DNA of 64,000 nucleotides from an uncultured Acidobacteriota bacterium. Its GTDB lineage: Bacteria > Acidobacteriota > Terriglobia > Terriglobales > Acidobacteriaceae. A program made the translations under genes and the position numbers. The notes beneath the pieces were generated by a model that saw only the letters and a list, made by a program, of their open reading frames with translations, did no database searches and had not been told where the DNA came from. The first letter of the stretch is position 1; each line of letters begins with the position of its first letter. This document shows positions 14,007 through 30,026 of the stretch, piece by piece. The stretch is taken from contig CAVWLI010000017.1 of the NCBI GenBank assembly GCA_963755795.1, positions 25,262 through 89,261 of the forward strand, given 5' to 3'.

Positions 14007-15737
14007 CTATTGCACCAGCGTGCCGTCCGGCGCAAACACCGGGAACCCATCCCACGGCCGCGACATGCTGAATTGCTGCAGCGCAGCCGTGCGGTTCAAC
14101 TCGAAGAGGAACAGCCCGTAGTTGTAATGCAGAATCCGATCTCCTGGATTTTTGCGTAGCGCCCACTCATACTGCGCCGCGGTTTCATCTGGACTTTCGC
14201 CGGCATCCTGCGCCTCGAGCGTTAACCGCAACACCTGGTCAGAATGGTTCAGTTGATTGGTGAAGGGCGGTTTCTGCAGGCGCTGCAACATTTCTCTGGT
14301 GATGCGTGCACGGTCATGCCCGGTGAACGCCAGCAGTTGCTCGCACTCACTCTCGGTAGGAGCGTCCTCGGAAGGAACGTCGGCCTCGATCAGCGAAATA
14401 TTCGACTCCGGCGCCAGCTTGCTCGCGATCTGCAGAAACATCGCACGCGCTAGCAGGTAGTTGCCCTGCGGCGTCAGGTGAACATGTTCGTAGACGAGCT
14501 CACTGCCGATGATTCCGTTCGGGCTGGCTTTGGCAAAAACATCTTCCGCGTCGACCAGTTCCGCTCCCGAGGACGCCGCCACCGAGCGATTGATGTCGTT
14601 GATTTTGCTGTCGGCGCGAAAGCGCAGCGTGTCGAGATCGCGGGCCCGGAGATAGTGCTCCCTGGCGCCCGCATAATCTCCCAGCATCCACAGGCCGCGC
14701 GCCATTCGGAACTCGAGTTCGGCGTACTGGTCGTCAATCTTCGTCGCGGCCTGGTAAGCCCTCATCGCTTCGTCGTAAGAACGCGCATTTTCCAGGTCCG
14801 CGCCCCGTTGCACCAGCGCCGTCCAGGAACGCAACTCATCCTTCCCTAAGTTCTCGCGATGCAGCGAAGAGAACGGCCCGCAGTCTTTCAGATTCGTGGC
14901 CACCGTACTCACAATCACCCGCGCTCCCGTGCCGCGCGCGACCGCGACGGTGTCCCGCAGGTTGGCCTCAAAATTCTGGTACGCATACTTCATAAGCGGC
15001 GAACTCTCGCGCACCTGCTTGTCGAGAAACATCTCCATCCCGCCCCACTCACGCTTCTGTGTTCCGACCTTGGTCAGCAGTTGGCCAATGCGGGTGGAGC
15101 GCACGAAGGTGCTGCTGCGGATGACCGGCAGGCTCATGCCCGACGACGTAAGCGCAGTCCCCGGGCCGTAGGGTCCGACGACTTCGTTATTGCCTGAATA
15201 GATGATGAACAGGTCTGGCCGCTGTTCCGCCAGTCCTTTCGCGATGGGCAGCAGCACGTGGGAGTTGATGGCCACGCTGCCGGTATTTACAACTTCGAAC
15301 TTTATCGCGGGGAAGCGCTCGCGCAACATCACTTCGAGATAGCGGCTGAAACCGTATGCCGGATCGGGGTCGCCCATAGCCGCCGACTCTCCGAGCACAA
15401 AAATTCGAAAGGTTCCCTGCGGTTTCTCCGCGGGAATCGCATAGGCCTGTGGCGTCTTAATCATGCCCGGCGGAAAAAATGGCGCCGGAAAAAACAGGTT
15501 GTAGCAGGCAGCGGCACGGCCCTGCTGCGTGCAGCGTACGGTGAGGTCAGTGGTATATCCCACGCCGAACAGGCGCAACCCTCCCTCAATCAGGCCCAGC
15601 AGCACGATCGGCACCAGGATGGCGCTGGCGATCTGCGGCCAGTAACTTTTCGCCCGCCCAGGGCGGTTGATCTTCGCGGTCGCTGAGTCTGCAGGTGAAG
15701 GCATCGTTGAATGTTTGTCTGAGAATGTTCTCTCCAC
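14007..15737 (-). CDS. Membrane-anchored SGNH/GDSL-like hydrolase-fold protein with TPR repeats (DltD/AlgX-like role possible)
   Basis: N-terminal TM segment (YWPQIASAILVPIVLLGLIEGG). SGNH-like blocks are FRIFVLGESAAMG, NTGSVAINS and IIYSGNNE. TPR-like segments occur around YDEAMRAYQAATKID and GDYAGAREHYLRARDLD. Confidence 0.7.
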   Translation of the reverse strand: MERTFSDKHSTMPSPADSATAKINRPGRAKSYWPQIASAILVPIVLLGLIEGGLRLFGVGYTTDLTVRCTQQGRAAACYNLFFPAPFFPPGMIKTPQAYAIPAEKPQGTFRIFVLGESAAMGDPDPAYGFSRYLEVMLRERFPAIKFEVVNTGSVAINSHVLLPIAKGLAEQRPDLFIIYSGNNEVVGPYGPGTALTSSGMSLPVIRSSTFVRSTRIGQLLTKVGTQKREWGGMEMFLDKQVRESSPLMKYAYQNFEANLRDTVAVARGTGARVIVSTVATNLKDCGPFSSLHRENLGKDELRSWTALVQRGADLENARSYDEAMRAYQAATKIDDQYAELEFRMARGLWMLGDYAGAREHYLRARDLDTLRFRADSKINDINRSVAASSGAELVDAEDVFAKASPNGIIGSELVYEHVHLTPQGNYLLARAMFLQIASKLAPESNISLIEADVPSEDAPTESECEQLLAFTGHDRARITREMLQRLQKPPFTNQLNHSDQVLRLTLEAQDAGESPDETAAQYEWALRKNPGDRILHYNYGLFLFELNRTAALQQFSMSRPWDGFPVFAPDGTLVQ

Positions 15738-16173
15738 GCTAACTTGACGCGTGTTTCCAATCGCGAGCTTTCACGATACAGGGCTGGACCGAATCCGATT
15801 CCGTAGGCCTAACCACGGCGTCGAATCCAACATCGCCCAGCCCTGCCGGTCCCCCGCATTCCGATATCCCGCTGGGAAGCGGAACTCGTCATGCGGCGGA
15901 AAAACGAAGTGCAGGCGCAGATACACGTCACAGCCTGTGGTGCATGCACAAGTCTTGCCAAAAACAACATGCGCATGCAACGACTGAGTTCTCTTTGCTT
16001 TCAGTCGCTTATCTCGCGTCAGTGAAAGCCCCTGCCAGCGCAGAAGAGCCGCATCGGTGAATTCCCCCGCCCTGAAGGAGTGTTTTGACCCTGTCCCCAC
16101 ACGCTGGCTCAATCGTTCGTCATTGAATCAGCCCATGAGCTCCAGCAGGGCAGGCTGCCTCCGGCTTTCAGCC

Positions 16174-18135
16174 TTACTTGATCCGCCCCTTGACTGGGTG
16201 CTGGCCAGACTCAGTGACCGATCCATTCGCATTATGCGCCGTGTTGTGGCACATCAACGTACAAGTGTTGGTGGCGTGGTTGTAGGCGATCGGACTGGCG
16301 CCGTTCTGCCCCACCACATTGCCGTCAAAGTTCACCAGCCGCTCGCCGGTGAAGGTCGGGGAATTGGCGCCCATACCGTGAGCGGTGTGGCATACGCTGC
16401 AGCTGAATCCGTATTGCGAAACGTGCAGGCTGTGCTGGACGAAGCTAGTGTTGGCGAGGATCTGGGTCAGGCTGTGACATTTTCCGCACAGTGCAAACGG
16501 TCCATCCACACTGGTATCAGGATTTGGATAAAGATTCGTAACTAGCTGTCCCGGCGCGGGAGCCTGGCTGAATTCGTAGCGCCGCTCCAGCAGGTGACTC
16601 CACTTCGACCCATGCGGACCGTTGGGGCCCGTGCCGCCGAATTCGCGATTGTCGTCGCTGTTATGGCAATCGGTGCAGAAGATCTGGCTGCCCACCAACC
16701 GCGGGGAAGCCAGGCCAGCCTCAGTCAACATATTCACCAGCAGGCTGGGCTGCGGCAGCGGAGACGTGCTCACGTGGGTTACCGGATGGCTCGAGGTCGC
16801 CGTCGACGCGAATTCCTGCATCACGTTCAGCGGGTCCGGCGCTGCAACTACGCGAATGGCTGGATAGCCGAAGATCGGCAGCCGCTGCTTGCCCATGCTG
16901 CTGCCGTGACAACGCAGACAGGTTTCATATTGATTCACCGCCGGAATCACCGGGGTTATGCCGTCAAGCGCGCTGATTCCGGTCGCGCCCTGCTGCGGAG
17001 GCCGAATCGCTGGCGGTGCCGAAAACGTCACTTCCGCATTGGACGCGTGCGCACTGTGGCAGTCCACGCAGGTGGCGTGGCGATTGTGGTTCAGCAGCGG
17101 AGCCTCGGCGGCGTCGTGGAAATTTACTCCCACCGGCAGCGGGTGGCTGATTTTCGTCTCTTCACTCATGATGTTAGGAGCCGCCGGCGATACATACGTT
17201 CCGCCCGCGTGACAGGTCATGCAGTTCTGCGTAACCGGATCATAGGAAGGAGCCGCCGGCGTGGCTGGACGCAACAACCGGGCGGGCGCAACTGAATTAT
17301 GCGACATGTGACACGAGGTGCAGGCATTCACTCCCACGGTCGGATAAGAGCCGACGTGGCCATCGGGTGAAACCTGATTGGTGGCCGTCTGATGTACGCT
17401 ATTGATGAAGCCGGCGAGTGGATTGATTTGTCCCTGCATCACTCGGTTGGGATCGTGACAGGCGAGGCACATCTGCCCGTTCGAACTGTCTCGTATCAGA
17501 AAATTCTGAGCGATTTTGTCGATCGCCTGAATGTGCGCCGAGTGACAGCTGGTACATTCGATATTTCCGTTGACCAGCTTCACCGCGCCCGTGGGATCGG
17601 CAGTCTTGCCCTGCGACGCCAGCGACGCCACCAGGTTCGCTGCGTCTTTAATCGGCAGCACCAGACTGAACGGATGCGAGCCGGTCAGCGTGGTGCCGAA
17701 CGAATCCGCCGCATTCATCGATCCGACCACCGGCAACGGCCCGTATGCCGCCGATTGTCCGACAGCCACCGTGCCGTCATGACAACTCAAACACAGGTTG
17801 CTCGTTCCTCCCAGCGTGGGTTGCGTGGCCTGAGTGTTTTCGGTCGAACTGGTATACGGCACATACGAACTCTGCGACAACTTCTGGTTCCATAGCGGAG
17901 TAATGCCCCCGATTCCGCTGTGCGGAGCGTGGCAGAACGTGCAACCCAGGCCGCCCTGCGAATACACCGCCGCGCCACTCGATACCGACAGGTTGTGCAT
18001 CCCCAGCACATCCGTGGTAGGCGGAGGCGTCGTTTGGGCAAAGCTCTGGGTGATCAAACTCTGCGTTATCAAAATCTGGGTCACCAGAAATTGGGCTACC
18101 AGGAAAGCGCAGGCAACTGACGGGCGAGTCTTCAC
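16174..18135 (-). CDS. Secreted multihaem c-type cytochrome (11 CxxCH + 1 CxxxCH)
   Basis: ORF 16174..18342. The start is placed at GTG 18135, which overlaps the TGA of the upstream NHL gene (GTGA). Signal peptide VKTRPSVACAFLVAQFLVTQILITQSLITQSFA-QT. Haem motifs are CTFCH, CLSCH, CTSCH, CLACH, CTSCH, CMTCH, CVDCH, CLRCH, CTDCH, CGKCH, CSVCH and CTLMCH. Confidence 0.9.
   Translation of the reverse strand: MKTRPSVACAFLVAQFLVTQILITQSLITQSFAQTTPPPTTDVLGMHNLSVSSGAAVYSQGGLGCTFCHAPHSGIGGITPLWNQKLSQSSYVPYTSSTENTQATQPTLGGTSNLCLSCHDGTVAVGQSAAYGPLPVVGSMNAADSFGTTLTGSHPFSLVLPIKDAANLVASLASQGKTADPTGAVKLVNGNIECTSCHSAHIQAIDKIAQNFLIRDSSNGQMCLACHDPNRVMQGQINPLAGFINSVHQTATNQVSPDGHVGSYPTVGVNACTSCHMSHNSVAPARLLRPATPAAPSYDPVTQNCMTCHAGGTYVSPAAPNIMSEETKISHPLPVGVNFHDAAEAPLLNHNRHATCVDCHSAHASNAEVTFSAPPAIRPPQQGATGISALDGITPVIPAVNQYETCLRCHGSSMGKQRLPIFGYPAIRVVAAPDPLNVMQEFASTATSSHPVTHVSTSPLPQPSLLVNMLTEAGLASPRLVGSQIFCTDCHNSDDNREFGGTGPNGPHGSKWSHLLERRYEFSQAPAPGQLVTNLYPNPDTSVDGPFALCGKCHSLTQILANTSFVQHSLHVSQYGFSCSVCHTAHGMGANSPTFTGERLVNFDGNVVGQNGASPIAYNHATNTCTLMCHNTAHNANGSVTESGQHPVKGRIK
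18046..18105 (-). repeat. Four tandem 15-bp units encoding FLVAQ-FLVTQ-ILITQ-SLITQ within the cytochrome signal peptide
   Basis: Plus-strand units are ctgggtgatcaaact / ctgcgttatcaaaat / ctgggtcaccagaaa / ttgggctaccaggaa. Coordinates were checked by codon arithmetic. Confidence 0.9.
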
Positions 18136-19259
18136 GGTTGTTTCCCCCCGTCCGTTGCAGCTGCGATTCCGTAGTAATGAAACACTTCCACGCGCCGGTT
18201 GAAGGAATCGACCACGTAGATGCGATCGTGCGCGTCGATCTGCAGTCCGGCCGGCAATTGAAACTGTCCCGCTCCAGTTCCCTTTCCGCCGAAGTAATAC
18301 AACAACCGCCCCTGTTCGTCGAAGACCTGCACGATGCTCCACTCGCCGTCGGCAACGTAGAGATGCCCTTCGGAATCAAATCCGATTCCTTTCGGCCGAA
18401 ACATCCATCCCACGCCATCGCCGATCCTTCCGACGGCGTAGCGGAACGTGCCCGCCCGGTCAAAAACCTGCACGCGGAAATTCATGGAGTCGACCACCGC
18501 CAGATCCGTTCCATGCAGCCGCAACTCGGTGGGATAGTTGAACTCGCCTTCGGCGGTGCCCGTCTTTCCAATGGTCTGCAGCACGCTGCCCTGCATGTCC
18601 ATGACGAAAATCTTGTTGCGCAGAGTATCCGTCACGTAAATGCGCTGGGCCGTCGAATCGACCGCAATTCCCGTGGGACGCTTGAAATATCCTTCGCCGC
18701 CCTTCAGGCTTCCAATCACACGGCGATACTTGCCGCTGGGGTCAAAGACAAAAACTTTTCCCGCCAGAGAATCGGTCACATAAATATTGTCCTGTGCATC
18801 CACGGCTACGCACTGCGGCGTGTACATGGGATCTTTCCCCACATCCCGCCGCGAGAGGAACTTGTACTTCTGCTGCACTAAATCGAAAATGTGCACGCCC
18901 CCCGCCGCCAGGTCGGTCACGAGGATGCGCCCGTGCGAATCGGTAACCACGCTGTAGGGGCCAACCAGGTAATGGAAGTCGGGCTGGCCCGCGATCACAT
19001 CCACCACTCGGGTCCAGAAGCTGCGCTTGGGATTGACTTCGCGTTCCAGGCTGAAGCTGCGTTCGAACGAGAGTTTCCGTCCGCCGTCCATCAGCAAATC
19101 GGGCGCCGTCGGCTGCACTTTTTCCTTGCGACTCTTCGCGGTGCGCGCTTGCGCTGGCAAAATCGCCAGCGTCATGGCCAGCAACATCGCCAGTCCGGCA
19201 ACGATCCGGCCCGTGCGCCACGCTGACCTGCGTCGTTGCCCTAGAAGAAGTCGAACCAT
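18132..19259 (-). CDS. NHL-repeat six-bladed beta-propeller protein, secreted
   Basis: Six blades: ILVTDLAAGGVHIFD, IYVTDSLAGKVFVFD, IYVTDTLRNKIFVMD, LAVVDSMNFRVQVFD, LYVADGEWSIVQVFD and IYVVDSFNRRVEVF. Signal/anchor segment IVAGLAMLLAMTLAILPAQA. The ATG at 19259 lies 19 nt inside the 3' end of the barrel gene. Confidence 0.9.
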   Translation of the reverse strand: MVRLLLGQRRRSAWRTGRIVAGLAMLLAMTLAILPAQARTAKSRKEKVQPTAPDLLMDGGRKLSFERSFSLEREVNPKRSFWTRVVDVIAGQPDFHYLVGPYSVVTDSHGRILVTDLAAGGVHIFDLVQQKYKFLSRRDVGKDPMYTPQCVAVDAQDNIYVTDSLAGKVFVFDPSGKYRRVIGSLKGGEGYFKRPTGIAVDSTAQRIYVTDTLRNKIFVMDMQGSVLQTIGKTGTAEGEFNYPTELRLHGTDLAVVDSMNFRVQVFDRAGTFRYAVGRIGDGVGWMFRPKGIGFDSEGHLYVADGEWSIVQVFDEQGRLLYYFGGKGTGAGQFQLPAGLQIDAHDRIYVVDSFNRRVEVFHYYGIAAATDGGKQP

Positions 19260-21091
19260 CGGGTTATTCCAGCAAAGTAAGAGGTAGTATTGGCCGGCGC
19301 TCCCGCCGCGCTGATGCCCTGCGTGAAGCGCGTGTAGCCGGCCTGTACGCCGATCCTGCGTAGATGGTACTGCAATTGGGCGTTGAAGATTTCCGTATTG
19401 TTGTGCGAGACAGTAGAACCCAAAGTGTTGCTGATGGCCCGGGTGAAGCTGCCCGCAATGACCAGTCGCCGGACCAGGTTCGCCGAGATTCCCCCACCGT
19501 AGCTCGATCCGCCAAAAGTGACAAAGTCGCTCACACCCGGCGTTGCAGAAACCGGCACCAATCCACCAGCACCCAGGAGTGATATCCCGGTCGACTGCGT
19601 GTAGTCGCCCGTGAGCGTGAACTTGCGCGATCCCAAGGCCGTCGAATAGGCCTGGCTGCTGCTGTTGGTGCCCTGGTAGTTGGTCAGCCCGCTGTGATTG
19701 CCGTTAAAGGCCGCCGTCCAGTTTAGTCCGGCGGGCAAACGGCGGCGCACGTTCGCGCTGTAGTTGTAGTACGAAGTCGTGTACGTCACCAGCAGAGACT
19801 GCACGTTCTGGGCATAGCTGAATACGCCCGAGGTTTGCCAGCCCGCGAAGCGGTGAAAGAAATTCACGTTGCCGATGAAACCCACCGAATTCGTGCCCTG
19901 GCCGTTGCTGCTGTCGATCACCGAACCAGAAAAGGTGAACATGTCGAAAATCCGTTTTCCGTAGTTCACCGTTCCACTCAGGTAAGTACCCGTGTAAGTC
20001 TTTCCGAAATATTCCTGGTCGTAATACGTCGCTTGTGACGACACCCCCAGATTGTTCGTGATCTGGTAGTTCGCGCCTCCCCCGAGGGTCGAGGAGTGCG
20101 CGCCCGATCCCAGGTTGATTCCCGGTACGATGGTTCCACTGGGGCTCAGGCTCTGCGCCAGGTACCCGTTCAGATTGCTGGTGTAATTCTCGGTGACGTT
20201 CAGCGAGAGTTTCTGCGTGGGGTGAAAGGTGGCGCCGGTGTTGACGATGTCATCGGTGTAGTGCGACGCATCGGAATTCTGCCCCGTGCTCGAGAAGTAG
20301 TTGCTGTCGGCGGATGACCGGTCGAAATTCGCAAAAAACTGGCCGCTCAGAGGCAAGGCGTGCTGCACTCCGAGTCCCACGTCATTTCCTGTCGAATCCT
20401 GCACTGACTCCGACTGTCCTGCCAGAAACTCAGGGAACTTAGAGTTCAAGCTGTTGCGGTCGTAGAAGCTATTCAGACGAAATCCCGCGATTTGGTAGCC
20501 CGAGCGCACGTTAAACAGCCGTGTGCTCGAAGTCGTTTCCTCGTTTGTGCCGTAAATCGTGCCGCTGCCTCCGCCCTGCGAATACCCCACCGTGAGAGTC
20601 GGCAGGTCCGGTACCAATGCGCTCCAATTGATCGCGAATCCCTCGCCCTTTCCCACGGTCGTGAAGTTGGGCTGTCCGGCCACTCCAAAAGTCCCGGTGC
20701 TATTGCGGTCGTAGCGATAGCTCACCGATCCCGGAAAATGGCTGCCCGAGAAGAAGTTCGCAGTCCCGTTGATTCCGGTCGCGCCGGTCAGCGATTGATA
20801 GGTCGAGTCGTCGCGCGATTGGTTGTAGTAGGGCTGAGCCGTGAACGACAAGAAATTAGGGTTGTAGTAGTAGCCCGAGATCTTGCCGTCGATTCCCCCG
20901 GTCAATCCGTGGTCCGAGGAAATGTCGTTGCCATAATCGCCGCTGTAGCCGAAGCTAAACAGGCCGCCGGCCGTCAGCCTGGTGTTTTCGCCGATGCGAA
21001 GTTCAGGAGTTTGCGATTGCGGCTGCTGCCCGCAGACGAGTTGCGCCATCATCAGCACCGCGAGTCCGAGGATGACATTCCTGCCCTGCAT
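19241..21091 (-). CDS. Predicted outer-membrane beta-barrel (porin-like), ~590 aa mature
   Basis: ORF 19241..21169 with a likely ATG at 21091 (MQGRNVILGLAVLMMAQLVCGQQ signal peptide). The sequence is very G/S/T/Y/N-rich with alternating hydrophobic pattern and almost no Cys. The C-terminus ...GITRWFDFF has a terminal Phe, a typical OMP beta-signal. Confidence 0.7.
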   Translation of the reverse strand: MQGRNVILGLAVLMMAQLVCGQQPQSQTPELRIGENTRLTAGGLFSFGYSGDYGNDISSDHGLTGGIDGKISGYYYNPNFLSFTAQPYYNQSRDDSTYQSLTGATGINGTANFFSGSHFPGSVSYRYDRNSTGTFGVAGQPNFTTVGKGEGFAINWSALVPDLPTLTVGYSQGGGSGTIYGTNEETTSSTRLFNVRSGYQIAGFRLNSFYDRNSLNSKFPEFLAGQSESVQDSTGNDVGLGVQHALPLSGQFFANFDRSSADSNYFSSTGQNSDASHYTDDIVNTGATFHPTQKLSLNVTENYTSNLNGYLAQSLSPSGTIVPGINLGSGAHSSTLGGGANYQITNNLGVSSQATYYDQEYFGKTYTGTYLSGTVNYGKRIFDMFTFSGSVIDSSNGQGTNSVGFIGNVNFFHRFAGWQTSGVFSYAQNVQSLLVTYTTSYYNYSANVRRRLPAGLNWTAAFNGNHSGLTNYQGTNSSSQAYSTALGSRKFTLTGDYTQSTGISLLGAGGLVPVSATPGVSDFVTFGGSSYGGGISANLVRRLVIAGSFTRAISNTLGSTVSHNNTEIFNAQLQYHLRRIGVQAGYTRFTQGISAAGAPANTTSYFAGITRWFDFF

Positions 21092-21347
21092 TTTCGCCGC
21101 TACCCTTCTGGCCAGAGGCTCAGAAAACCCGCTTGCACTTACTGGTTGAGGAGGCACAACAGTTGCCAAACTCGCGGCGAATGAGGACTTTCCAATCTGT
21201 TGAAAACAATATCGTTACGCCTTCATTAGGAGGGAGGGTTTGAGCTGAAATTCGCGCCGGTGCGGCATATCACCCGGCTTGCGAGTTGAAATCCACAACC
21301 GCCCGAACAGCGCCGCTGTCGTCCAAAACCAAAGACCTGTACAAAGC

Positions 21348-21388
21348 GAAGGACCTGTGCAATCGGCGGAAGATTGCACAGGTCCTTC
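21348..21388 (-). terminator. Strong hairpin (16-bp perfect stem, 9-nt loop) 28 nt after the PPIase stop
   Basis: GAAGGACCTGTGCAAT-cggcggaag-ATTGCACAGGTCCTTC read directly. On the minus strand it is followed by a partly T-rich tract (GCTTTGTACAGGTCTTTGGTTTTGG). Confidence 0.55.
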
Positions 21389-21415
21389 GTTTCTCTCAGC
21401 ATCACAAAACGCTGA

Positions 21416-22438
21416 TTAGACTTCCTCAATCCTAGCCTTTGCCCGTAATTGCTTCGCCAGGCCAGACCGCAGTTTGTCGTACTTGCTCTTCTGCAAATTC
21501 GTTTTCAGATCGTTCTTGACCTCGGCGAACGGGCGTTTGCGCGACGGAGTAAATGCAGTCGCCCGCACGATGGTGAATGCGGTTTCAATCTGGATCAGCC
21601 CGCTCACGCCGCCCGGCCCGGCTGCCCGCAAAGCTTTAACCACCTGCGGCGGCAACTTGTCGGCCGTCACAACTTTGTGGTCACCCATGTTCACCCGGAA
21701 ATCATCCTCGGAGATCTTCTCCGCCAGCAATCCAAATTGCTCGTAGGTCTTGGCGGCCTTCGCCTGCACCAACGCCGCTTCCGCCCGCTTTCTGGCATCT
21801 TTTTCCTGATCCGGCGTCGCCTTCAGCGGAGGAACGATGGAGATGCTCTGGAACCCGAAAGACTCCGGCTGCTGGAATTGCCCCGGATTCTTGGCGTAAT
21901 ACGCCTGAAGCTCGGCCAACGAAACCGCCGACTTATCTTCCACATCGGTTTTCAGAACCTGCTCAATCAGCAGCGAGCGCTTCATCTGTTGCCGCAGTTT
22001 TTGCTCGGAACCCTGCATCTCAGTCTGCAGGTATTGCTGGTATTGGTCCGGACTCTTAAACTGGCCGCGAAATTCGGTCGCGGCGTGATTCAGCTTTTCG
22101 GGCGAAACTGTCAGCTTCCGCCGCACCGCTTCCTGATACACCAGTTCCTCGAAAATAATCATCTCCAGCGCACCTTGCCGGATCTCCGCTTCCTGCGCTT
22201 TGGGAAAGCCGTTGTGCTGTTGCGCGTAGGGAAAGATGGTGTACATCTCGCGCAGCAGATCCCGATCGGTCAACACGGCACCGTTAACCCTGGCAACCGG
22301 CTTCTCACTCGCCTGCAAGGTTGAGGTCTGGGCAGACGCGGTGTTTGTGAGCACGGTCGGCGTATGCGAAGCCACTTGGGCTGATGCCGCCGAGAGTGCC
22401 AGTGCCAGAAATCCGCAGATGGAGAGTTGGTATTTCAT
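21416..22438 (-). CDS. Periplasmic SurA/PpiD/PrsA-like chaperone with PpiC (parvulin)-type PPIase region
   Basis: Signal peptide MKYQLSICGFLALALSAASAQ. It has a SurA-N-like helical domain (ARVNGAVLTDRDLLREM...) and the long coiled helical middle typical of this family. The parvulin call is from overall similarity, not a strict motif. Confidence 0.8.
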   Translation of the reverse strand: MKYQLSICGFLALALSAASAQVASHTPTVLTNTASAQTSTLQASEKPVARVNGAVLTDRDLLREMYTIFPYAQQHNGFPKAQEAEIRQGALEMIIFEELVYQEAVRRKLTVSPEKLNHAATEFRGQFKSPDQYQQYLQTEMQGSEQKLRQQMKRSLLIEQVLKTDVEDKSAVSLAELQAYYAKNPGQFQQPESFGFQSISIVPPLKATPDQEKDARKRAEAALVQAKAAKTYEQFGLLAEKISEDDFRVNMGDHKVVTADKLPPQVVKALRAAGPGGVSGLIQIETAFTIVRATAFTPSRKRPFAEVKNDLKTNLQKSKYDKLRSGLAKQLRAKARIEEV

Positions 22439-22545
22439 ATTGCCTCGCTCGGTTCCTCGCTTGCTAACTTCTACTCACCTCGTGACCGGCTCGAATAAAA
22501 AAGGGGAGAGTCGATCCTCTCCCCTTCTTGCACATCATCCAACGT

Positions 22546-23457
22546 CTACTGGAAGACCGTCGTGATGTTGTTGGTGTTGTTGGCTTCGTTCGACTCGCCA
22601 AAGTGGCACTGGCGGCAGAACTGCGTGGTCGAAGGAGCATTGGTATTGGCCACGTTGTTGATGTTCGGGTTGTAGGGGCCGTTCACGAAGAAATAGGTGG
22701 CGTAATAGCCGGTCGCATTTCCCGCGATCGGGCTGGCTGCGCTGGCCGTATAGACAGTCATCACGTGCTGGTTGTGGCAAGTGGTGCAGAGCACGTAGGG
22801 AGCATTTGTGGCGGTGAGACCATAGGGCTTAGACCATTTCCCAGGCGCCAGTGCTGGCCAGCCATAGTTGGCTACGAACTGAGCATACGGGGAGCCGGGG
22901 GTTACTGTCAGTGCGCCAGCAGTGTTCACCAAGCCGCTGCCAGTGCTGATGATCGCCAACTGGCCCACCGGGTGGTCGTTGGTGTAGTTGCCGCCCGTCG
23001 TGCCGTCGTTGCCGAGCAGGGTGGGGATCTTACCGGTTCCGTACGAGGTATTCGTCAGCAGGCCGATCCGCTGTTCGTACGATTGGTTGACCATCATGTT
23101 GCTGGCCGTGACGTTGCCGTCATGGCAGCTCAGGCAGAGCAGGATGCCGCCAACTTCTTGCGACCCAGTCGAGATGCTGGCAGGCAGAACTTCGGTATAT
23201 TTCCCGCCATCGCCGAATGCGATCGTCTTGCTGTACAGGGGGCTGGCGTCCTGTCCCCACAATGCATAGCTACCAGTATCAGCGGCGCCGGCGTGGCCGG
23301 AACCGAAAGAGCCGCTGTGCGGTGCGTGACATCCAGCGCAGCCGCGGCCGTTATTATTGTGGGCGCCCAGTACGTCAACCGGCGATGACCAGTTCTGCGC
23401 CATCGCGAAGCTCCCGACCGCCAGAACGAACAGTGCAACTAAAAGCGCTTTCTTCAT
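22546..23457 (-). CDS. Secreted tetrahaem c-type cytochrome with low haem density
   Basis: ORF 22546..23493 with a likely ATG at 23457 (MKKALLVALFVLAVGSFAMAQ). Haem motifs are CAGCHAPH, CLSCHDG, CTTCHNQH and CRQCHFG. The long spacers are G/S/T/N/A-rich. Confidence 0.85.
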   Translation of the reverse strand: MKKALLVALFVLAVGSFAMAQNWSSPVDVLGAHNNNGRGCAGCHAPHSGSFGSGHAGAADTGSYALWGQDASPLYSKTIAFGDGGKYTEVLPASISTGSQEVGGILLCLSCHDGNVTASNMMVNQSYEQRIGLLTNTSYGTGKIPTLLGNDGTTGGNYTNDHPVGQLAIISTGSGLVNTAGALTVTPGSPYAQFVANYGWPALAPGKWSKPYGLTATNAPYVLCTTCHNQHVMTVYTASAASPIAGNATGYYATYFFVNGPYNPNINNVANTNAPSTTQFCRQCHFGESNEANNTNNITTVFQ

Positions 23458-23897
23458 AAAATTCCACGACCTCCATGAAAAATGTTTTGCCACTTCTTAA
23501 TAAACTCTCAGAGGCTTAGGCCGTGGGCTGCGTCTTGTGCCTGGGCACTCGGCGTAGCCGCCTCTCAGCTTCTGTTAGTGCAACTGGCCGCCCGAAACCC
23601 CAGGCCGCCGGCGATTTCCTTGAATCTCTTGTAAATTATTGAATTAACTAATCTTAAGCTCGAGGCACCCGACAGCAGATCTCTGGAAAACTCCTCAACA
23701 CTGGGGGAAAACAACCACTTGGCGGCCCCGCTTGGTCAAATTACCCAGTTGTAAGAAACCGCAACAGAGCTGTTGCAAAACTCAGCAGCCGACCGCGCGC
23801 TATCCGTGCATCAAGAATCGGTGTGAGGAATTTTCTTGCGTTGCCGCCGGCAGAGACGGAGCAACCACGTCCTCGACGGATGGGATCTTCATCTCGG

Positions 23898-25160
23898 CTA
23901 CTTGCTGGGCGGGACTTTGGCTTCCGGCGCTGCGGGCGGCGACAGTGGGACAACCTCTTTGTTGCCCGCCGCTTTCTTGGCCCGCTGCTCTTCTTTGTCC
24001 TTGCGCGCCTGCTCAGCCTCGGCGTCGGTCACGTAGCGGAATTGTTGCACGCGTCCGGGATAGATTTCCGAGGTGAAGACGCGGTTGTTCTTATCGGTCG
24101 CAATATTCACGATCCCCTGAAACTGGCCCGGCAGCAGGCCGTGGCCACCGAATGAAATCAGCAGATGCGCGTCCTGGTTGTAGACCTGCACCCGGTCCTG
24201 CACGCCGTCGGCAACCCAGATGTGGTTATCACTGTCGATCGCGACCCCTTTGGGCCGCGAGAAGTATCCCGGGCCATCGCCCGCCTTGCCGAACGTGCTG
24301 ATGAATTTTCCGTCGGCGTCAAAGATTTCTACGCGGTTGTTCAGCGTATCGCAGACATAGAGGTTGCCTTCTGCATCGACCGCCAGTCCGGACGGCCTGG
24401 CGAAATCTCCAGGACTGGTGAGCTCATGGTGGTGTCCGGTGGTGCCGATCTTGCGCAGCAGTTTGAGTGAGTCGGCGTCATACACCAGCACCTGATCAAG
24501 CTCGATGTCGGACACATAAAGCAGCCGGTTCTCGCGATCGATGGCCAGCGAGCCGGGTTCGACCAGTCCCTCAGTGATCACATCCTCCGCAACATGGGCG
24601 GGGTTGAAGACCAGAACATGGCGCAAGCCAGGGTCGGACACGAACAGACGATCGTTGTCGTCCATGGCCAGCCCGATGATGCGGACGAAGTGGGCGTGCG
24701 CCTTGTTCTTGATCATGTCAAGATCGTGCGTCTCGGTGTTGAAAATAAAGATGGCGCCGACCTTCTGATCCGCGATGTATAGGTTGTTCTTGGAATCGAC
24801 TGCGAGGCCGTAGGGCTCGGCCAGTTGGTACAACACCTTTGCTTCGCTCTGTGGCTGCGTGCCCGCCAGGCGGTCCATCCATTTCGCTTTTTTGCTGTCG
24901 TTCCCCGCCTCGACCTGCGAGATCTTTTCCGCCGCAAAGAATCCCGTGTAGCGAATGCGCGCAATGGCCGGAGGATTCGGCCACACAATGTTCGAATAAT
25001 CAATGACGGGAACCTTCTTGGCCGTGTCCGTCTTCTTTTTGCCGGCAAATGCGGAGATGGGCGCCAGCAGAGCCAGGCCGACCATAAGACACACGACAAG
25101 TCGCGGGCGACGGTCGGCTGAGCCCGCGCTGATGGCAGACATGCTTTTCATTTTCCTCAT
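23898..25160 (-). CDS. NHL-repeat beta-propeller protein, secreted, with K/P/A/E-rich C-terminal tail
   Basis: ORF 23898..25229. The ATG at 25160 is preceded by GGAGAA. Signal peptide LVVCLMVGLALLAPISAFA. Blades are LYIADQKVGAIFIFN, LFVSDPGLRHVLVFN, LYVSDIELDQVLVYD, LYVCDTLNNRVEIFD, IWVADGVQDRVQVYN and VFTSEIYPGRVQQF. Tail sequence: EAEQARKDKEEQRAKKAAGNKEVVPLSPPAAPEAKVPPSK. Confidence 0.85.
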   Translation of the reverse strand: MRKMKSMSAISAGSADRRPRLVVCLMVGLALLAPISAFAGKKKTDTAKKVPVIDYSNIVWPNPPAIARIRYTGFFAAEKISQVEAGNDSKKAKWMDRLAGTQPQSEAKVLYQLAEPYGLAVDSKNNLYIADQKVGAIFIFNTETHDLDMIKNKAHAHFVRIIGLAMDDNDRLFVSDPGLRHVLVFNPAHVAEDVITEGLVEPGSLAIDRENRLLYVSDIELDQVLVYDADSLKLLRKIGTTGHHHELTSPGDFARPSGLAVDAEGNLYVCDTLNNRVEIFDADGKFISTFGKAGDGPGYFSRPKGVAIDSDNHIWVADGVQDRVQVYNQDAHLLISFGGHGLLPGQFQGIVNIATDKNNRVFTSEIYPGRVQQFRYVTDAEAEQARKDKEEQRAKKAAGNKEVVPLSPPAAPEAKVPPSK

Positions 25161-25229
25161 CTTCGTTCTCCTGGTTCTCCTGCGACGTCTCTCATGCGAA
25201 CTTTCTCCCCGCAAACTTCCTGGTTGCAA

Positions 25230-26672
25230 CTATCGCTTCGTCAGATCCTTGTGACAGCTGGCGCAGAATTGCGCGTTGTTCACCTGGTCCTTCGCCAGCA
25301 GGTCGGGCTGCGCCGAGGAATGCGGCTGATGGCAGGATAGGCAGTCGATCTTCGCGATTATCTTGGTGACGTTCGAGGGATCAACTACATCGGAGATGGG
25401 GTGGCCTGCGATCGGATGCCCGCGCCCGAACTTTATGGGCAGCACCACGACTTTATTCTTGGTGAAGTAATCCTCTGGCAGCCGCACGGTTCCGTTGAAA
25501 ATCGTGAGCAGGTGCTCGGCTTCGAGCTTTTTCGGCTCCGCGTCAGGGCCGTGACATTCCAGACACAGTCCGTTCGTACTCTTGCTGCGCAGCAAGTGAT
25601 CGTTGTCGCCGCCGTGGGGCTCGTGGCAGGTGGCGCATCCCTGCTTGAACGCGGGCTGATGCAGAAAGTGTTTCTTGCCCTGCTCGGCCTGGTCGCTGTG
25701 GCAGGTCAGGCAGATGTCAACTGCATTAGTCCTGGGCAGGCCGGGCTGGCGGCTGGCATGCGGATTATGGCAGTCAGTGCACTCTCCGGCCGCGCCGGGA
25801 TGCGGCACTCTCGCCTTTTCAATGTTCTCTGCCACGTCGCTATGGCAGGTGACGCAGATCGACTTCACGTCGGCTTGCACGAGGACTACTTTGCCGTCCT
25901 TGGCCGGCGCGTGGCACGTGTCACAAGATTTCTCGGCGAACGGAGGATGCAGGAACTGCCGCATTAGCTTGGGGACGGCCGACTGATGCGGATCGTGGCA
26001 ACTGGTGCAATCCGCGGTGGCGAAAGGCTGGTTGTGATGCGCCTTCTGCAGGCTCGCGTCTTTGACGTCGTGGCAATCAACGCACAGCGCCGGAGCGGCC
26101 TTGGTCAAATGAAAATCAAACTCGGGTTTACCCACTTCTCCGGTCTTGTGGGTGATGTGGCAGGTGTCACAGCCCATATCGAGCGCAGCATGGCGGCTGC
26201 CTTTTTCCGGAACGTTCAACCCCTGGGTGTGGCACTCGAGACAAAGATTCTGGCTTTTGTCGCCCGACTCAGGCTTCAGCAACTGATTCTTGTTGTCGCT
26301 GGTATGCGGGTCGTGACACTTAATGCAGTCGCGCACGGCCGGAGGATGCACCGTCCCTTTTAGAGTGGAAGCGTCTTTGTCGGCGTGGCAGGTTAGACAA
26401 AGCGCCTGCGGAGTCGAGGTGATCAGCTTGATCCGCGTGACGTCTTTATTGACCCGAACTTCATGACAGCTGAGGCAGCCGGTGGCAATCGCCGAATGCA
26501 CCGCCTTGCCCTTCGTCTTATCCTCGTGGCACTCGAGACACTTCGCCGAATCCACATTCTTGTCGAGCGGAACCGGATGTTCCTTGGCCCATGCTGGCAT
26601 TGCTGCAATCACGAAGAAGAATGCCAGCCAAGAGAAACGGGGGAGGGCTGCGATGCTTGCGTTCCGGCTCAT
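25230..26672 (-). CDS. Periplasmic/secreted 16-haem c-type cytochrome (c3/c7-like modular)
   Basis: ORF 25230..26741 with a likely ATG at 26672 (MSRNASIAALPRFSWLAFFFVIAAMPAWA). I counted 16 canonical CxxCH motifs in ~450 mature residues, many as CxxCHDPH/CxxCHxxH. Confidence 0.9.
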   Translation of the reverse strand: MSRNASIAALPRFSWLAFFFVIAAMPAWAKEHPVPLDKNVDSAKCLECHEDKTKGKAVHSAIATGCLSCHEVRVNKDVTRIKLITSTPQALCLTCHADKDASTLKGTVHPPAVRDCIKCHDPHTSDNKNQLLKPESGDKSQNLCLECHTQGLNVPEKGSRHAALDMGCDTCHITHKTGEVGKPEFDFHLTKAAPALCVDCHDVKDASLQKAHHNQPFATADCTSCHDPHQSAVPKLMRQFLHPPFAEKSCDTCHAPAKDGKVVLVQADVKSICVTCHSDVAENIEKARVPHPGAAGECTDCHNPHASRQPGLPRTNAVDICLTCHSDQAEQGKKHFLHQPAFKQGCATCHEPHGGDNDHLLRSKSTNGLCLECHGPDAEPKKLEAEHLLTIFNGTVRLPEDYFTKNKVVVLPIKFGRGHPIAGHPISDVVDPSNVTKIIAKIDCLSCHQPHSSAQPDLLAKDQVNNAQFCASCHKDLTKR

Positions 26673-26941
26673 AGAAGTACGATTTTGAAATACTGGGACC
26701 ATTGCCAACCGTTGCACTTGCACGATCCTCGCCTTCCGCACTCGAAAGCACCGCAGATTTTTACCGGGCTGTAAATTATTGCAACAATTCGTCTTCCAAT
26801 CTATTGCGTGACCGGAGAAGATTCTGCTGAGCCGGACTGAACGTTTCCAAAATGGGCCTTCTGCCTCACTCAGTCGGTGAAATCACGCACGCTTCTGTTG
26901 CGCGGTGAAGCCAAGTGGTTCCGCCTTATTTTGCAGCCATT

Positions 26942-26957
26942 TGTGATTGAAATCACA
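26942..26957. promoter_or_regulatory. Perfect CRP/FNR-family palindrome TGTGA-TTGAAA-TCACA
   Basis: Read directly and checked by codon arithmetic from 26877. It lies in the divergent intergenic region, 178 nt upstream of the ccsB ATG (27135) and 270 nt upstream of the 16-haem cytochrome ATG (26672). It also fits the FNR form TTGAT-N4-ATCAA with one mismatch per half-site. Confidence 0.45.
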
Positions 26958-27134
26958 CGCTTTCCCCTGTGGGTGAAATCGCAGCAAACCCTTGCAAGAA
27001 TGAGTGTTATGGCTCACGCGAGCCGCTCGACCGACCCCCTCTTTCAGACTCACTCCGTTGATAACACACGACTTCAAGGCAAATCCCAACGTTGGCGCGG
27101 AACGTGCATTGCTCCAAGTGAGAAGAGGAACGTC

Positions 27135-28607
27135 ATGCCACTGTCACTGCTCGCGGCGCCCCGAAAAATCTGGCAGACCCTCAGTTCCATCAAAACCGGA
27201 GTCGTTCTCATTATTCTGGTCGTCATCTTTTCGGCGGCGGGCACAGTTATTTTGCAACGTCCCATGACCGACGCCGACGATATGGAGCGCGCTTATTCGC
27301 CGTCGATGCTGCGCTTTCTCGACGCCACCGGCCTCACCGACGTTTTTCACACCCGCTGGTTCGTAGCTCTGTTAATTCTGGTGTGCTTCAGCATCATCGC
27401 CGCCTCGGTGCAGCGCTTCCCCAACGCCTGGCGATATTTCGCGCGTCCTTATAAGAGTCCCGACGAAAACTTCCGCAAAGCTCTGCCCATGCAGGCCCAG
27501 TTTGCGCTCGCCCGTAACGACGAAGAACTCGGACTGAGCGCCGCCGAACGCGCCTTCAAGCACCTTGGACTAAAAACAGAGCGCATCGTACGCACCAACA
27601 GTTTCTCGCTGTTCTCGGAGCGCAGCCGCATCTCCGAGATGGCGGTCTACATCGTTCATGCCAGCCTGCTTCTGATCTTTACCGGCTTCATCGTGGACTC
27701 GCTCTATGGCTGGCGCGGATTCCTGATGCTGACTCCAGGAACCGCCAGCAACCAGATCGAAATGAAAAACGGCTCGCTGCGGACGATTCCCTTCTCCATC
27801 CGCTGCGACGGAACCGGCGAGGAAACCTATGCCGACGGCACGCCCAAGAAATATTGGTCGAAGCTCGCGGTGGTGGACGGCGGACAAGAAATTTCCCGCA
27901 AAGAAATCGTGGTCAACGATCCGCTGGTCTATCACGGGCTCCGTTTCTATCAGGCCAGTTACGGCCGCACCGGCAAGCTCGATCAACTGATCCTTGACGC
28001 GACTCCAGCCAACAACGTCGCCAGCACTCCGCAGCAAATTTCTCTCGCCATGAACCAGACCGTGCCGCTCGACCCCGACACCACCGTGCAACTGGTGGAG
28101 TTCATCCCCGATTTCGTGGTGGAGGACGGCCGGGTCTTCACCCGCAGCAAAGACATTGTGAATCCCGCGGTTCACATCATCGTGACTTCAAAGAAAGCGA
28201 ATAGCAGCGTGAATGTATGGCTGCCTCCCATGCCGGGCATCGACGAGAACGCATCCTCCCCCTACACCTTCGACCCGAAAGACTTGAAGACCGGTGTCTA
28301 CACGGGACTGCAGGTTTCGCACGAACCCGGCCAGTGGGCGGTGTGGGCCGGAGTCGTGCTCATGGCCATCGGCCTGACCTTTGTTTTCTATGTGGTTCAC
28401 ATGCGCTTCTGGGTTGTCCCGGTACGCGACGCGCAGGGCGGCACGGTGCTGTGGGTTGGCGGCACGGCCAACCGCAATCGCGACGCCTTCGAAATGAAGT
28501 TCAAAACTGTGGTCGAGCAGATTCAGAAAGAACTCAAGCCCGCAATGGCCTCGGCTGCGCCGCCGGATGTAGCAACGATCTCTAGAACAACCATCGCCGG
28601 ACGCTGA
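27135..28607 (+). CDS. ccsB: Cytochrome c biogenesis protein ResB/CcsB (System II)
   Basis: ORF 26877..28607. The ATG at 27135 is preceded by AGAGGAA. N-terminus KIWQTLSSIKTGVVLIILVVIFSAAGTVILQRP, a large periplasmic loop and a C-terminal TM segment. It is followed 22 bp later by ccsA. Confidence 0.88.
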   Translation: MPLSLLAAPRKIWQTLSSIKTGVVLIILVVIFSAAGTVILQRPMTDADDMERAYSPSMLRFLDATGLTDVFHTRWFVALLILVCFSIIAASVQRFPNAWRYFARPYKSPDENFRKALPMQAQFALARNDEELGLSAAERAFKHLGLKTERIVRTNSFSLFSERSRISEMAVYIVHASLLLIFTGFIVDSLYGWRGFLMLTPGTASNQIEMKNGSLRTIPFSIRCDGTGEETYADGTPKKYWSKLAVVDGGQEISRKEIVVNDPLVYHGLRFYQASYGRTGKLDQLILDATPANNVASTPQQISLAMNQTVPLDPDTTVQLVEFIPDFVVEDGRVFTRSKDIVNPAVHIIVTSKKANSSVNVWLPPMPGIDENASSPYTFDPKDLKTGVYTGLQVSHEPGQWAVWAGVVLMAIGLTFVFYVVHMRFWVVPVRDAQGGTVLWVGGTANRNRDAFEMKFKTVVEQIQKELKPAMASAAPPDVATISRTTIAGR

Positions 28608-28628
28608 GTCCGGCAACGGAGGAAATGT

Positions 28629-30026
28629 ATGGCACGCGCAAACGTTGAACAGCATCCCGCGACCGGAACCACCATGATCGTGATGGTGGGGTTGGGAATG
28701 GCTTTCCTGCTGTTCATGGCTTTTCTGAATGTGGCGAAGAGCGGAAATATTCTGAGTGAAGCCAACTTCTTATTTGCCGCCCTGGTTTTCTACTCGGGCG
28801 CGGGAGCGTTATATCTGGGCTTTGGCGTAACCGGGACTGAATCCTACATCAAGTACGCTTCCCTCATGACCTGGGCAGGCCTGCTGGCCAACACCGCGGC
28901 CGTTGCCCATCGCTGGTACGAAGCCGGACATCCTCCGTTCGCCAGCATCTATGAAATGCTGCTGAGTTTTGTGTGGACTTTAGCTGCGCTCACCCTGATC
29001 GCGGAAAAACGCTATGGCGTGAAAGTCATTGGCACGGTCACCATGCCGGTTGCGATTGTCGGCGTCATCCTGATGCAGCTTCTGCCTAGCGAAGTTCGCC
29101 CGCTGGTTCCGGCACTTCAATCCACTTGGCTGCACGTCCACGTGACCCTGGCCATGCTGGCCTATGCAGCGTGTGCGCTGAGCTTTGCGCTGGCCATGAT
29201 GTTCCTGATCCAGGACAAGGTGAAGACGGAACTGTTTCTGGCCGCCACCAGCATATTCACGGTCGGAATTTATGGCGCGGTCCTCACCCGTTTCGAAAAA
29301 TGGGGCGGCCTCAACGTAATCGCATGGAACGCTCAAAATAAAGCAGAAGTGTTCGTCTCGCGCGGCGTCAGGCTCTTCGTCACGATTCCCGACCTCGGCT
29401 GGCTGATGCTTCTGGTCTTCGCCGCTGTGCTGGCTCCGCTGGTACTCTTCGCCCTTTCGCGAATCAAGAAGAATGCAGCCCTGCTGGCGGTGGCCGATCG
29501 CGCAGTCTTCGTCAGCATTCTGCTGCAAATCCTGGCCCTGGCATTTTTCCTGGTGCGCGTGCGCGGCGGACAATATCCCTCCCTCGATGCCGACGGCTTG
29601 TACGCCACGAGTCTGGCGGCAAGCCCGTTCATTCTCTCCGCGCTGGTGGGCGGTATCTTCGCCAATCTTCTCTATCTCCTATTGCTCTGGCGGCGCGCCG
29701 ATCTCGAACGCCTTCTCCCCGACGCCGACACGCTCGACCGCATCACTTACAAAACAATTTGCATTGCCTTCCCCCTACTCACCCTGATGATCGCCGCCGG
29801 CGCCTACTGGGCTAACCGGGCCTGGGGCTCCTATTGGAATTGGGATCCTAAAGAGACGTGGGCGGCGATTACTTGGCTGGTCTATGCCGGCTATCTGCAC
29901 ATGCGCATCACTCGCGGCTGGCGCGGACGCCGTGCCGCCTACTTCGCCATCCTGGGATTCGCGGTGGTGATGTTCACCTTCTTCGGCGTCACTTATTTAT
30001 TGCCTGGATTGCATGCGTATGCCTGA
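28629..30026 (+). CDS. ccsA: Cytochrome c-type biogenesis protein CcsA (haem handling, WWD motif)
   Basis: Polytopic protein. It carries the W-rich motif WGSYWNWDPKETWAAITWLVYAGYLH and conserved His residues. Confidence 0.9.
   Translation: MARANVEQHPATGTTMIVMVGLGMAFLLFMAFLNVAKSGNILSEANFLFAALVFYSGAGALYLGFGVTGTESYIKYASLMTWAGLLANTAAVAHRWYEAGHPPFASIYEMLLSFVWTLAALTLIAEKRYGVKVIGTVTMPVAIVGVILMQLLPSEVRPLVPALQSTWLHVHVTLAMLAYAACALSFALAMMFLIQDKVKTELFLAATSIFTVGIYGAVLTRFEKWGGLNVIAWNAQNKAEVFVSRGVRLFVTIPDLGWLMLLVFAAVLAPLVLFALSRIKKNAALLAVADRAVFVSILLQILALAFFLVRVRGGQYPSLDADGLYATSLAASPFILSALVGGIFANLLYLLLLWRRADLERLLPDADTLDRITYKTICIAFPLLTLMIAAGAYWANRAWGSYWNWDPKETWAAITWLVYAGYLHMRITRGWRGRRAAYFAILGFAVVMFTFFGVTYLLPGLHAYA

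Follow-up and report, generated by a model that had tools for sequence, protein, structure and literature searches.

The closest described counterpart of the genes considered here is a three-gene core of porin, NHL protein and cytochrome c ('Porin-NHL-CytC', EET1), which a bioRxiv preprint of May 2026 (Fiorito et al. 2026) reports from 49 peat metagenome-assembled genomes (MAGs) of Terriglobales/UBA7540, where it is expressed in situ. According to that preprint the porin is MtrB-like; the NHL protein carries DUF5128, has 6XG7 as its best match and is proposed to be a scaffold; the OmcE-like multihaem cytochrome is predicted to be extracellular; and matches to the core also occur in SPRUCE and Stordalen MAGs (Fiorito et al. 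2026). The smallest omcE clusters, described in mBio in 2026 around the OmcE of D. soudanensis (PMC13712944), always contain two multihaem cytochromes, two beta-propeller lipoproteins, OmcE and a large beta-barrel, beside resB/ccsB; Acidobacteriota are not among the five phyla listed there. The uet (undecahaem electron transfer) cluster is known from Ca. Tenderia electrophaga and Gallionella, with electron uptake as its proposed physiology. In Desulfovibrio ferrophilus IS5, expression of NHL propellers goes together with that of outer-membrane cytochromes, whose complex they are proposed to stabilise. For the osc (omcS companion) operon of G. sulfurreducens, a role in folding is reportedly proposed for OscH and one in secretion of the cytochrome wire for OscE/F/G. 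Three adjacent genes of comparable kinds, for an outer-membrane beta-barrel, an NHL beta-propeller (NHL1) and a 12-haem cytochrome, lie on the minus strand of a 64,000-nucleotide (nt) stretch of a peat or soil acidobacterium (assembly GCA_963755795.1, contig CAVWLI010000017.1, positions 25,262 to 89,261). We call this whole stretch the window, use window positions throughout, and refer to the three genes as the trio.

The trio is the EET1 core and is as such already known from the preprint. It has the EET1 gene order (porin, NHL, cytochrome c) in Terriglobales; its barrel, like the EET1 porin, has an SPI signal and only a fold similarity to MtrB; NHL1 shares with the EET1 NHL protein DUF5128, an SPI signal peptide and a best structural match to the Thin NHL domain 6XG7; and the third gene encodes an OmcE-like multihaem cytochrome in both (here OmcE family probability 99.7%, and E 3.3e-12 to 9YUQ). 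SPRUCE and Stordalen MAGs, for which the preprint reports matches, are among the closest relatives found for the window locus. The comparison draws on the descriptions and tables of the preprint, which counts 13 haem motifs in its EET1 representative against 12 in the window. The preprint does not mention overlaps, translational coupling, a SurA-like peptidyl-prolyl isomerase (PPIase), a free OmcE-like tetrahaem cytochrome or ResB/CcsA, all of which enter the description of the window below. We hold it probable that in Terriglobales the trio serves extracellular electron transfer of the OmcE/Uet type, as the conserved core of that system at the outer membrane, and that it is probably an expression unit of its own with linked translation. 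Its features, with Shine-Dalgarno abbreviated to SD, open reading frame to ORF and amino acids to aa, are the following.

19241 to 21091, minus strand: ORF of the outer-membrane beta-barrel, 616 aa, with a Sec/SPI-type signal peptide and a C-terminal aromatic beta-signal ending in RWFDFF.
19268 to 19270, minus strand: SD-like GGA before NHL1, formed by a conserved barrel Gly codon about 8-9 nt 5' of the NHL1 ATG.
19241 to 19259, minus strand: overlap 1, 19 nt, with the NHL1 ATG (19259-19257) inside the barrel Arg-Trp codons (CGA TGG) of the beta-signal and the barrel stop TAG at 19243-19241.
18132 to 19259, minus strand: NHL1, 375 aa, an exported six-bladed NHL beta-propeller according to its Pfam matches (DUF5128 and NHL) and its AlphaFold2 (AF2) model.
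18142 to 18149, minus strand: SD-like GGGGGGAA within the final NHL1 codons, about 8 nt 5' of the cytochrome start, commonly GGGAGG in relatives.
18132 to 18135, minus strand: overlap 2, 4 nt, GTGA, with the cytochrome GTG at 18135-18133 and the NHL1 TGA at 18134-18132.
16174 to 18135, minus strand: 12-haem cytochrome, 653 aa, with 11 CXXCH motifs, one CX3CH motif and an SPI-type signal peptide.
17452 to 18018, minus strand: OmcE-homology module of the 12-haem cytochrome, about residues 40-228, with four haem motifs, delimited by profile comparison with the OmcE family.

Both overlaps lie exactly where the initial annotation had put them, the 19-nt one inside the end of the barrel gene and the 4-nt one as a GTGA stop/start overlap. 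For their conservation in homologous loci, which it had named as a check, one genome per species was scanned; this gave 80 loci with the barrel (41-87% identity to the window barrel), all from Terriglobales or Ca. Sulfotelmatobacter-type MAGs, SPRUCE and Stordalen bins included. Overlap 1 was scored in the 80 loci, overlap 2 and the features of the NHL1 start in 73, and gene order in 81 with the window counted. Overlap 1 is present in 77/80 and overlap 2 in 73/73: both overlaps are real, conserved and under selection.

The codons tell how overlap 1 is kept. The barrel ORF (21091..19241) terminates in ...CGATGGTTCGACTTCTTCTAG, that is CGA TGG TTC GAC TTC TTC TAG, and the ATG of cgATGg opens the NHL frame 19 nt within the barrel gene. 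This overlapped ATG, 16 nt before the barrel stop, owes its existence solely to the terminal A of the Arg codon ahead of the invariant Trp. The Arg is encoded by AGA in 65 and by CGA in 12 of the 80 loci, against a background in these same genes in which A-ending codons make up 13.7% of all Arg codons and CGC alone 43%. On a tree built from the barrel minus its last 11 codons, the first base of the ATG-forming Arg codon changed eight times and the third base only twice, both times in lineages without overlap 1; neighbouring synonymous sites changed 13-21 times. The Gly codon about 9 nt 5' of the ATG is GGA or GGG in 74 of the 80 loci and GGC in none (0/80, background 46.6%), so that an SD-like GGA, GGGA or GGAG stands at a suitable distance from the NHL1 start. 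Such codon-level evidence that the overlaps are maintained is a new addition to the known system. The three exceptions are L041 and L043, with the Arg codon CGG, and L078, with AGG. In these, 75-100 nt separate the barrel stop from the start of the NHL gene, which has a new signal peptide there, and the Arg codon is relaxed. In four further loci, all from long-read MAGs (L046, L075, L077 and L079), the NHL or barrel genes have frame breaks while the overlapped ATG and the signal-peptide coding are kept; these breaks are most likely assembly indels, not pseudogenes.

Overlap 2 is simpler: the NHL gene ends in CCG TGA and the cytochrome gene begins at the GTG of ccGTGA, sharing 4 nt. Among the 73 scorable loci the overlap reads GTGA in 40, ATGA in 32 and TTGA in one, and every one of them has an SD-like word ahead of it (GGGAGG in 34). 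The start codon of the cytochrome changed 12 times on the tree, and the 4-nt overlap was never lost.

Overlap 1 would be an annotation artefact if NHL1 truly began further downstream, for example at MLLAMTLAIL, an alternative start that the initial annotation had itself named as fatal to coupling. The window does have an in-frame ATG there, 24 codons downstream of the overlapped one. That Met is absent from most relatives, and other in-frame ATGs occur in only 26/73 loci, at scattered positions; the overlapped ATG is the only positionally conserved one. Translation from it gives every intact locus a normal signal peptide, with MVR(L/F)LL, a positively charged stretch, a hydrophobic core and an A-x-A site; residues 2-20 are net positive in 72/73 loci, as for a signal-peptide n-region. 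Between the overlapped ATG and PDLLxDGG, the first conserved motif of the mature protein, lie 44-70 residues, in 15 different lengths and always in frame. With the extreme codon bias that creates the overlapped ATG also speaking for it, we judge a downstream start to be extremely improbable.

What the overlaps imply for expression has to be weighed with more care. Same-strand stop/start overlaps that have an SD inside the upstream gene and are conserved among relatives are what characterises coupled overlapping genes, and that is the situation at both junctions. Ribosomes ending the barrel gene would encounter an SD-like GGA/GGAG and an ATG 16 nt ahead of the stop; ribosomes ending the NHL gene would encounter GGGAGG and an RTG sharing its last two bases with the TGA stop. 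Linked translation of this sort would keep production of the three products together. Four observations weigh against it. No unusually stable mRNA structure was found at either junction (73 loci, mean z about 0); each of the two downstream starts has an SD to itself, from which initiation could also be independent; three lineages keep the trio genes without overlap 1; and only soil DNA metagenomes contain the stretch, while no RNA run does. Coupling by the unmasking of a hairpin is not indicated, as no stable junction structure is present, and the mechanism is likely re-initiation or facilitated initiation at the internal SDs.

A rival explanation is ordinary operon compaction, with independent initiation at each gene's own SD and no information in the overlaps on stoichiometry or on a complex. 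Overlaps of 4 nt, ATGA or GTGA, are the commonest gene overlap in bacteria. Each downstream start has its own SD-like word, neither junction has a stable structure to unmask, and L041/L043 and L078 exchanged overlap 1 for a 75-100 nt spacer and kept the trio. Against compaction stand the embedding of overlap 1 in the barrel beta-signal, where it was kept through at least eight synonymous changes of the same codon, the retention of overlap 2 in 73 loci despite 12 start-codon changes, and the movement and persistence of the trio as a unit. Since selection on a start codon is expected anyway, conservation is compatible with compaction as well, and we think it a serious if less likely explanation. 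At most, then, the overlaps point to coupled or co-ordinated translation. The stoichiometric co-production claimed in the initial annotation may follow from it. As a whole that reading is partly supported: its co-ordinated expression of a probable complex holds.

The order barrel, NHL, cytochrome is found in 80/81 loci including the window, the sole exception ending at a contig edge, and the trio co-occurs in essentially every relative; a lack of such co-occurrence was what the initial annotation had named as refuting its reading. It is the downstream half of a seven-gene minus-strand cluster that is complete in 66 of the 72 loci having room on both sides, and that is adjoined by divergently transcribed ResB and CcsA genes. 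The surroundings of the trio are listed here from the far end of the cluster.

26877 to 30026, plus strand: ResB and CcsA genes of system II cytochrome c maturation, divergent from the cluster (Pfam ResB 4e-82, Cytochrom_C_asm 2e-47).
21416 to 26741, minus strand: upstream half of the seven-gene cluster, four genes from the 16-haem cytochrome to the SurA-like PPIase.
25230 to 26741, minus strand: 16-haem DmsE-like cytochrome, named from its TIGR03508 score and 16 CXXCH motifs.
23898 to 25229, minus strand: NHL2 propeller.
22546 to 23493, minus strand: OmcE-like tetrahaem cytochrome, 315 aa, matching 9YUQ and the OmcE family.
21416 to 22438, minus strand: SurA-like PPIase.
21347 to 21389, minus strand: hairpin with an 18-bp perfect stem and a U-rich tail, directly 3' of the SurA-like gene, with about 255 nt between it and the barrel start.

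The hairpin (-45.5 kcal/mol, z -8.0) is likely a terminator or attenuator that separates the upstream from the downstream half of the cluster, and together with the gap of about 255 nt before the barrel start it suggests that the trio is probably its own expression unit, in which the genes would be translated in a linked way. No Rfam family matched in 15700-27100, and a consensus scan for promoters and terminators gave sites no more numerous than in shuffled sequences. One locus, L008 from a MAG with a complete chromosome, has the trio alone: none of the four upstream cluster genes lies within 8 kb, and the trio directly follows a Hox-type NAD-linked [NiFe]-hydrogenase operon (Nuo51-like, 2Fe-2S/4Fe-4S, 20-kDa small subunit and NiFe large subunit). 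The trio is accordingly a separable three-gene unit.

The first gene of the cluster also bears on the claim that a propeller occupies the place where porin-cytochrome systems normally encode their periplasmic cytochrome. Such a replacement is not supported: a DmsE/MtrA-like cytochrome is encoded upstream in the same cluster. It scores 194.6 bits against the DmsE family cut-off of 192.2 (TIGR03508), yet has 16 CXXCH motifs in 503 aa, or about 31 aa per haem; by these sequence features it is an elongated MtrA-like wire. Nor is the position of the propeller unusual, as had been thought: NHL proteins beside porins and multihaem cytochromes recur in the omcE, uet, D. ferrophilus and EET1 systems.

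NHL1 matches DUF5128 (PF17170) at 2.5e-25, and NHL. Its AF2 model (pLDDT 83, pTM 0.78) has six four-stranded blades, and the conserved N-terminal segment PDLLxDGGRKLxFERSFSLEREVKPKRSFW gives the strand that closes the propeller. The best fold matches are the Thin NHL domain (6d69 and 6xg7, ranks 1 and 2) and TRIM2/3/71, with target TM-scores (TMt) of about 0.85, all of them non-catalytic interaction domains. That NHL1 is instead an enzyme, lactonase, lyase or amidating-lyase-like, acting on a substrate or on the cytochromes, could be read from its weak Pfam matches to the SGL, Arylesterase and Lactonase propeller families and from the presence of PAL (3fvz) and Vgb lyase low in its fold list. 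None of the catalytic family models attains its cut-off, by sequence and by fold (TMt about 0.85) NHL1 is closest to the non-catalytic domains, and each of the two propellers adjoins a cytochrome gene; a catalytic role is in our view very unlikely. The signal peptides of NHL1, NHL2 and their relatives are of the A-x-A type and contain no lipobox Cys. The N-terminal motif of NHL2, (V/L)WPxPPxxxR(I/L), is common to the propeller lipoproteins of Desulfuromonadia omcE clusters, and the motif of NHL1 differs from it; with different conserved N-terminal motifs, the two propellers are probably not interchangeable.

The barrel is large. The AF2 model built from 40 relatives (pLDDT 68) has about 27 strands (26-28) over residues 70-611, beyond the 20 that the initial annotation had thought enough to accommodate an inserted protein, so that the modelled barrel is large enough for one. 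At the C-terminus stands the invariant RWFDFF, an aromatic beta-signal of typical form that also contains overlap 1. The family comprises 612 representatives at 50% identity; among the best 150 of these and ten looked-up clusters, all were unnamed or from Terriglobales, and no named distant relative appeared. Conservation is highest in the N-terminal region, about residues 35-135 (20690-20990, minus strand), with invariant G, Y, P and F as in GYYYNPNF and PYYNQSR. This region is also the part of the model with the lowest confidence, and may be a plug or partner-binding segment instead of a membrane strand.

The 12-haem cytochrome is a composite. Its first approximately 225 residues form a complete homologue of OmcE, which is the tetrahaem subunit of cytochrome nanowires in Geobacter and Desulfuromonas, and the remaining approximately 425 residues carry eight more haem sites. 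In an hhalign comparison the family profile matches 30 OmcE-family proteins with a probability of 99.7% (E 1e-25); a search with the profile also finds PDB 9YUQ, the OmcE of D. soudanensis, with E 3.3e-12 over chain residues 1-217 of 218. All eight haem-ligand His of the module are invariant (H47, H69, H72, H119, H154, H198, H201 and H227). The free tetrahaem cytochrome of the cluster is itself related to 9YUQ (E 7e-6) and to the OmcE family (probability 99.2%), and shares 36% identity with the N-module of the 12-haem protein (E 3e-18). On this homology, the OmcE module at the front of the core cytochrome is a second new addition to the known system. No match was obtained to TIGR03507, the MtrC/OmcA-family decahaem model. 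Over its whole length the module also matches MHC221, the OmcE paralogue of the Desulfuromonadia (E 8e-17); a fusion of MHC221 with its 8-haem neighbour MHC331 is unsupported as an account of the whole protein, since the match of the remainder to MHC331 is weak and driven by haem motifs (probability 88%). The signal peptide of the window protein (18046-18105, minus strand) carries the inserted residues flvaqflvtqilitq, which the family consensus does not have.

Against the omcE clusters the window was compared by way of two Desulfuromonadia-type loci, L081 and L082. L082 shows the omcE cluster layout and has the same parts list as the window cluster. The omcE-cluster propellers are 28-34% identical to NHL1/NHL2 (E 1e-39 to 1e-51), the 19-haem protein of L082 is related to the 16-haem one, and the pattern of the OmcE-family tetrahaems, four CXXCH and four further ligand His, recurs in the free tetrahaem, with all eight His kept in the N-module. 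Gene order differs: here the barrel is followed by the NHL gene and then by the 12-haem OmcE fusion. The window cluster, unlike the omcE cluster, has a SurA-like PPIase, and the genes of L082, unlike those of the trio, do not overlap.

The comparison with uet is one of gene kinds. In these its order of tetrahaem (UetA), PPIase (UetB), 28-strand barrel (UetC), NHL (UetH/I), 11-haem cytochrome (UetJ) and CcsA/CcsB is the same as in the window; counterparts of UetDEFG, three trihaem c7 proteins and a cupredoxin, are lacking both between the barrel and the NHL gene and elsewhere in 16174-26741. The working model for the window is the one used for the MtrCAB/Pcc systems of Shewanella and Geobacter, with a large barrel that encloses a haem wire and has a cytochrome on its outer side. 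At 194.6 vs 192.2 bits the upstream 16-haem protein passes the DmsE/MtrA cut-off, and MtrB is the second-best fold match of the barrel; the barrel nevertheless has no match at E 0.01 to the MtrB/PioB family of MtrCAB and MtoAB, and its TM-score to 6r2q_B is 0.35. The outer cytochrome is MtrC/OmcA-like in Mtr and OmcE-like in the window, and Mtr/Pcc clusters are without a propeller whereas the window cluster has two. The likeness of the D. ferrophilus IS5 propellers to NHL1, and of the osc operon of G. sulfurreducens to the trio, is drawn from published text.

The assignment of the trio to an OmcE/Uet-type system also has points to its disadvantage. The barrel has no Pfam or NCBIfam match at E 0.01, MtrB_PioB included. 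In Foldseek its model finds generic large barrels only, all with TM-scores below 0.5: SlpA of Deinococcus (query TM-score, TMq, 0.47), MtrB 6r2q_B at rank 2 (TMq 0.35), LptD and TonB-dependent receptors. Its profile shows no detectable homology to the L081/L082 barrels (hhalign probability 0.2%; as a profile was compared with single sequences, distant homology is possible), which at 756-785 aa are also longer than the 616 aa here. In addition, the L081/L082 propellers have a Cys lipobox, and the acidobacterial ones are without the lipobox Cys.

With these points taken into account we still consider a probable electron-transfer core the best description of the trio. Its three products have SPase-I-type signal peptides and are exported by Sec. 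The barrel of about 26-28 strands would form a pore, and the six-bladed NHL propeller would be docked on it as a non-catalytic scaffold or adaptor. The 12-haem cytochrome, an OmcE-like module with an 8-haem extension, would lie outside or span the pore, take electrons from the 16-haem periplasmic wire and pass them outside, possibly to the OmcE-like tetrahaem of the same cluster. The analysis shows the overlaps and the selection on them, the synteny, the folds and the OmcE homology; a physical complex, its topology, the direction of electron flow and any fixed stoichiometry are inferred.

Instead of forming a static conduit of the Mtr type, the trio could also be mainly a machine for the secretion and assembly of an OmcE-type filament, like that proposed with OscEFG for OmcS: the barrel would export the tetrahaem, the propeller would chaperone it and the 12-haem protein would be the filament base or cap. 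Genes for an OmcE-like tetrahaem and a SurA-like PPIase lie just upstream of the trio, the 12-haem protein starts with a complete OmcE module that has all haem ligands, and the parts list is that of a minimal omcE cluster; porin-based mounting of OmcS/OmcE wires, helped by companion proteins, is moreover proposed in the literature. Filaments, however, are not known to have been seen in any acidobacterium, L008 has the trio without a tetrahaem gene within 8 kb, the window and omcE-cluster barrels have no sequence homology, and the Osc roles are cited at second hand. On balance such a machine seems to us rather unlikely.

A narrower and more speculative version, which we rate as improbable although worth stating, concerns the 12-haem cytochrome as the membrane-proximal base, nucleator or anchor, of an OmcE-type filament. 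As a complete OmcE look-alike with its eight His kept and 36% identity to the free tetrahaem, the module could offer a subunit-like face for stacking tetrahaems; the 8-haem extension would then run through or lie on the approximately 28-strand barrel, held by the NHL propeller. Linked translation of barrel, propeller and base would in that case give one base per pore, and the arrangement would answer how cytochrome nanowires are initiated and anchored, a question that the D. soudanensis OmcE paper posed in its preprint form of 2025.

The system itself was established by the 2026 preprint and the omcE/uet literature, not by the present analysis. What is added is the codon-level overlapped arrangement across about 80 species, the start of the propeller and the complete OmcE module in the core cytochrome. 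The true start of the propeller gene is now fixed. These three points are useful for cloning or expressing the system, and they give a concrete, testable idea for the anchoring of an OmcE-type wire. The Terriglobales concerned here rank with the dominant bacteria in peat and acid soils, and the porin-NHL-cytochrome core is the leading candidate for the route by which their respiratory electrons would reach outside material, which bears on peat carbon turnover and methane.

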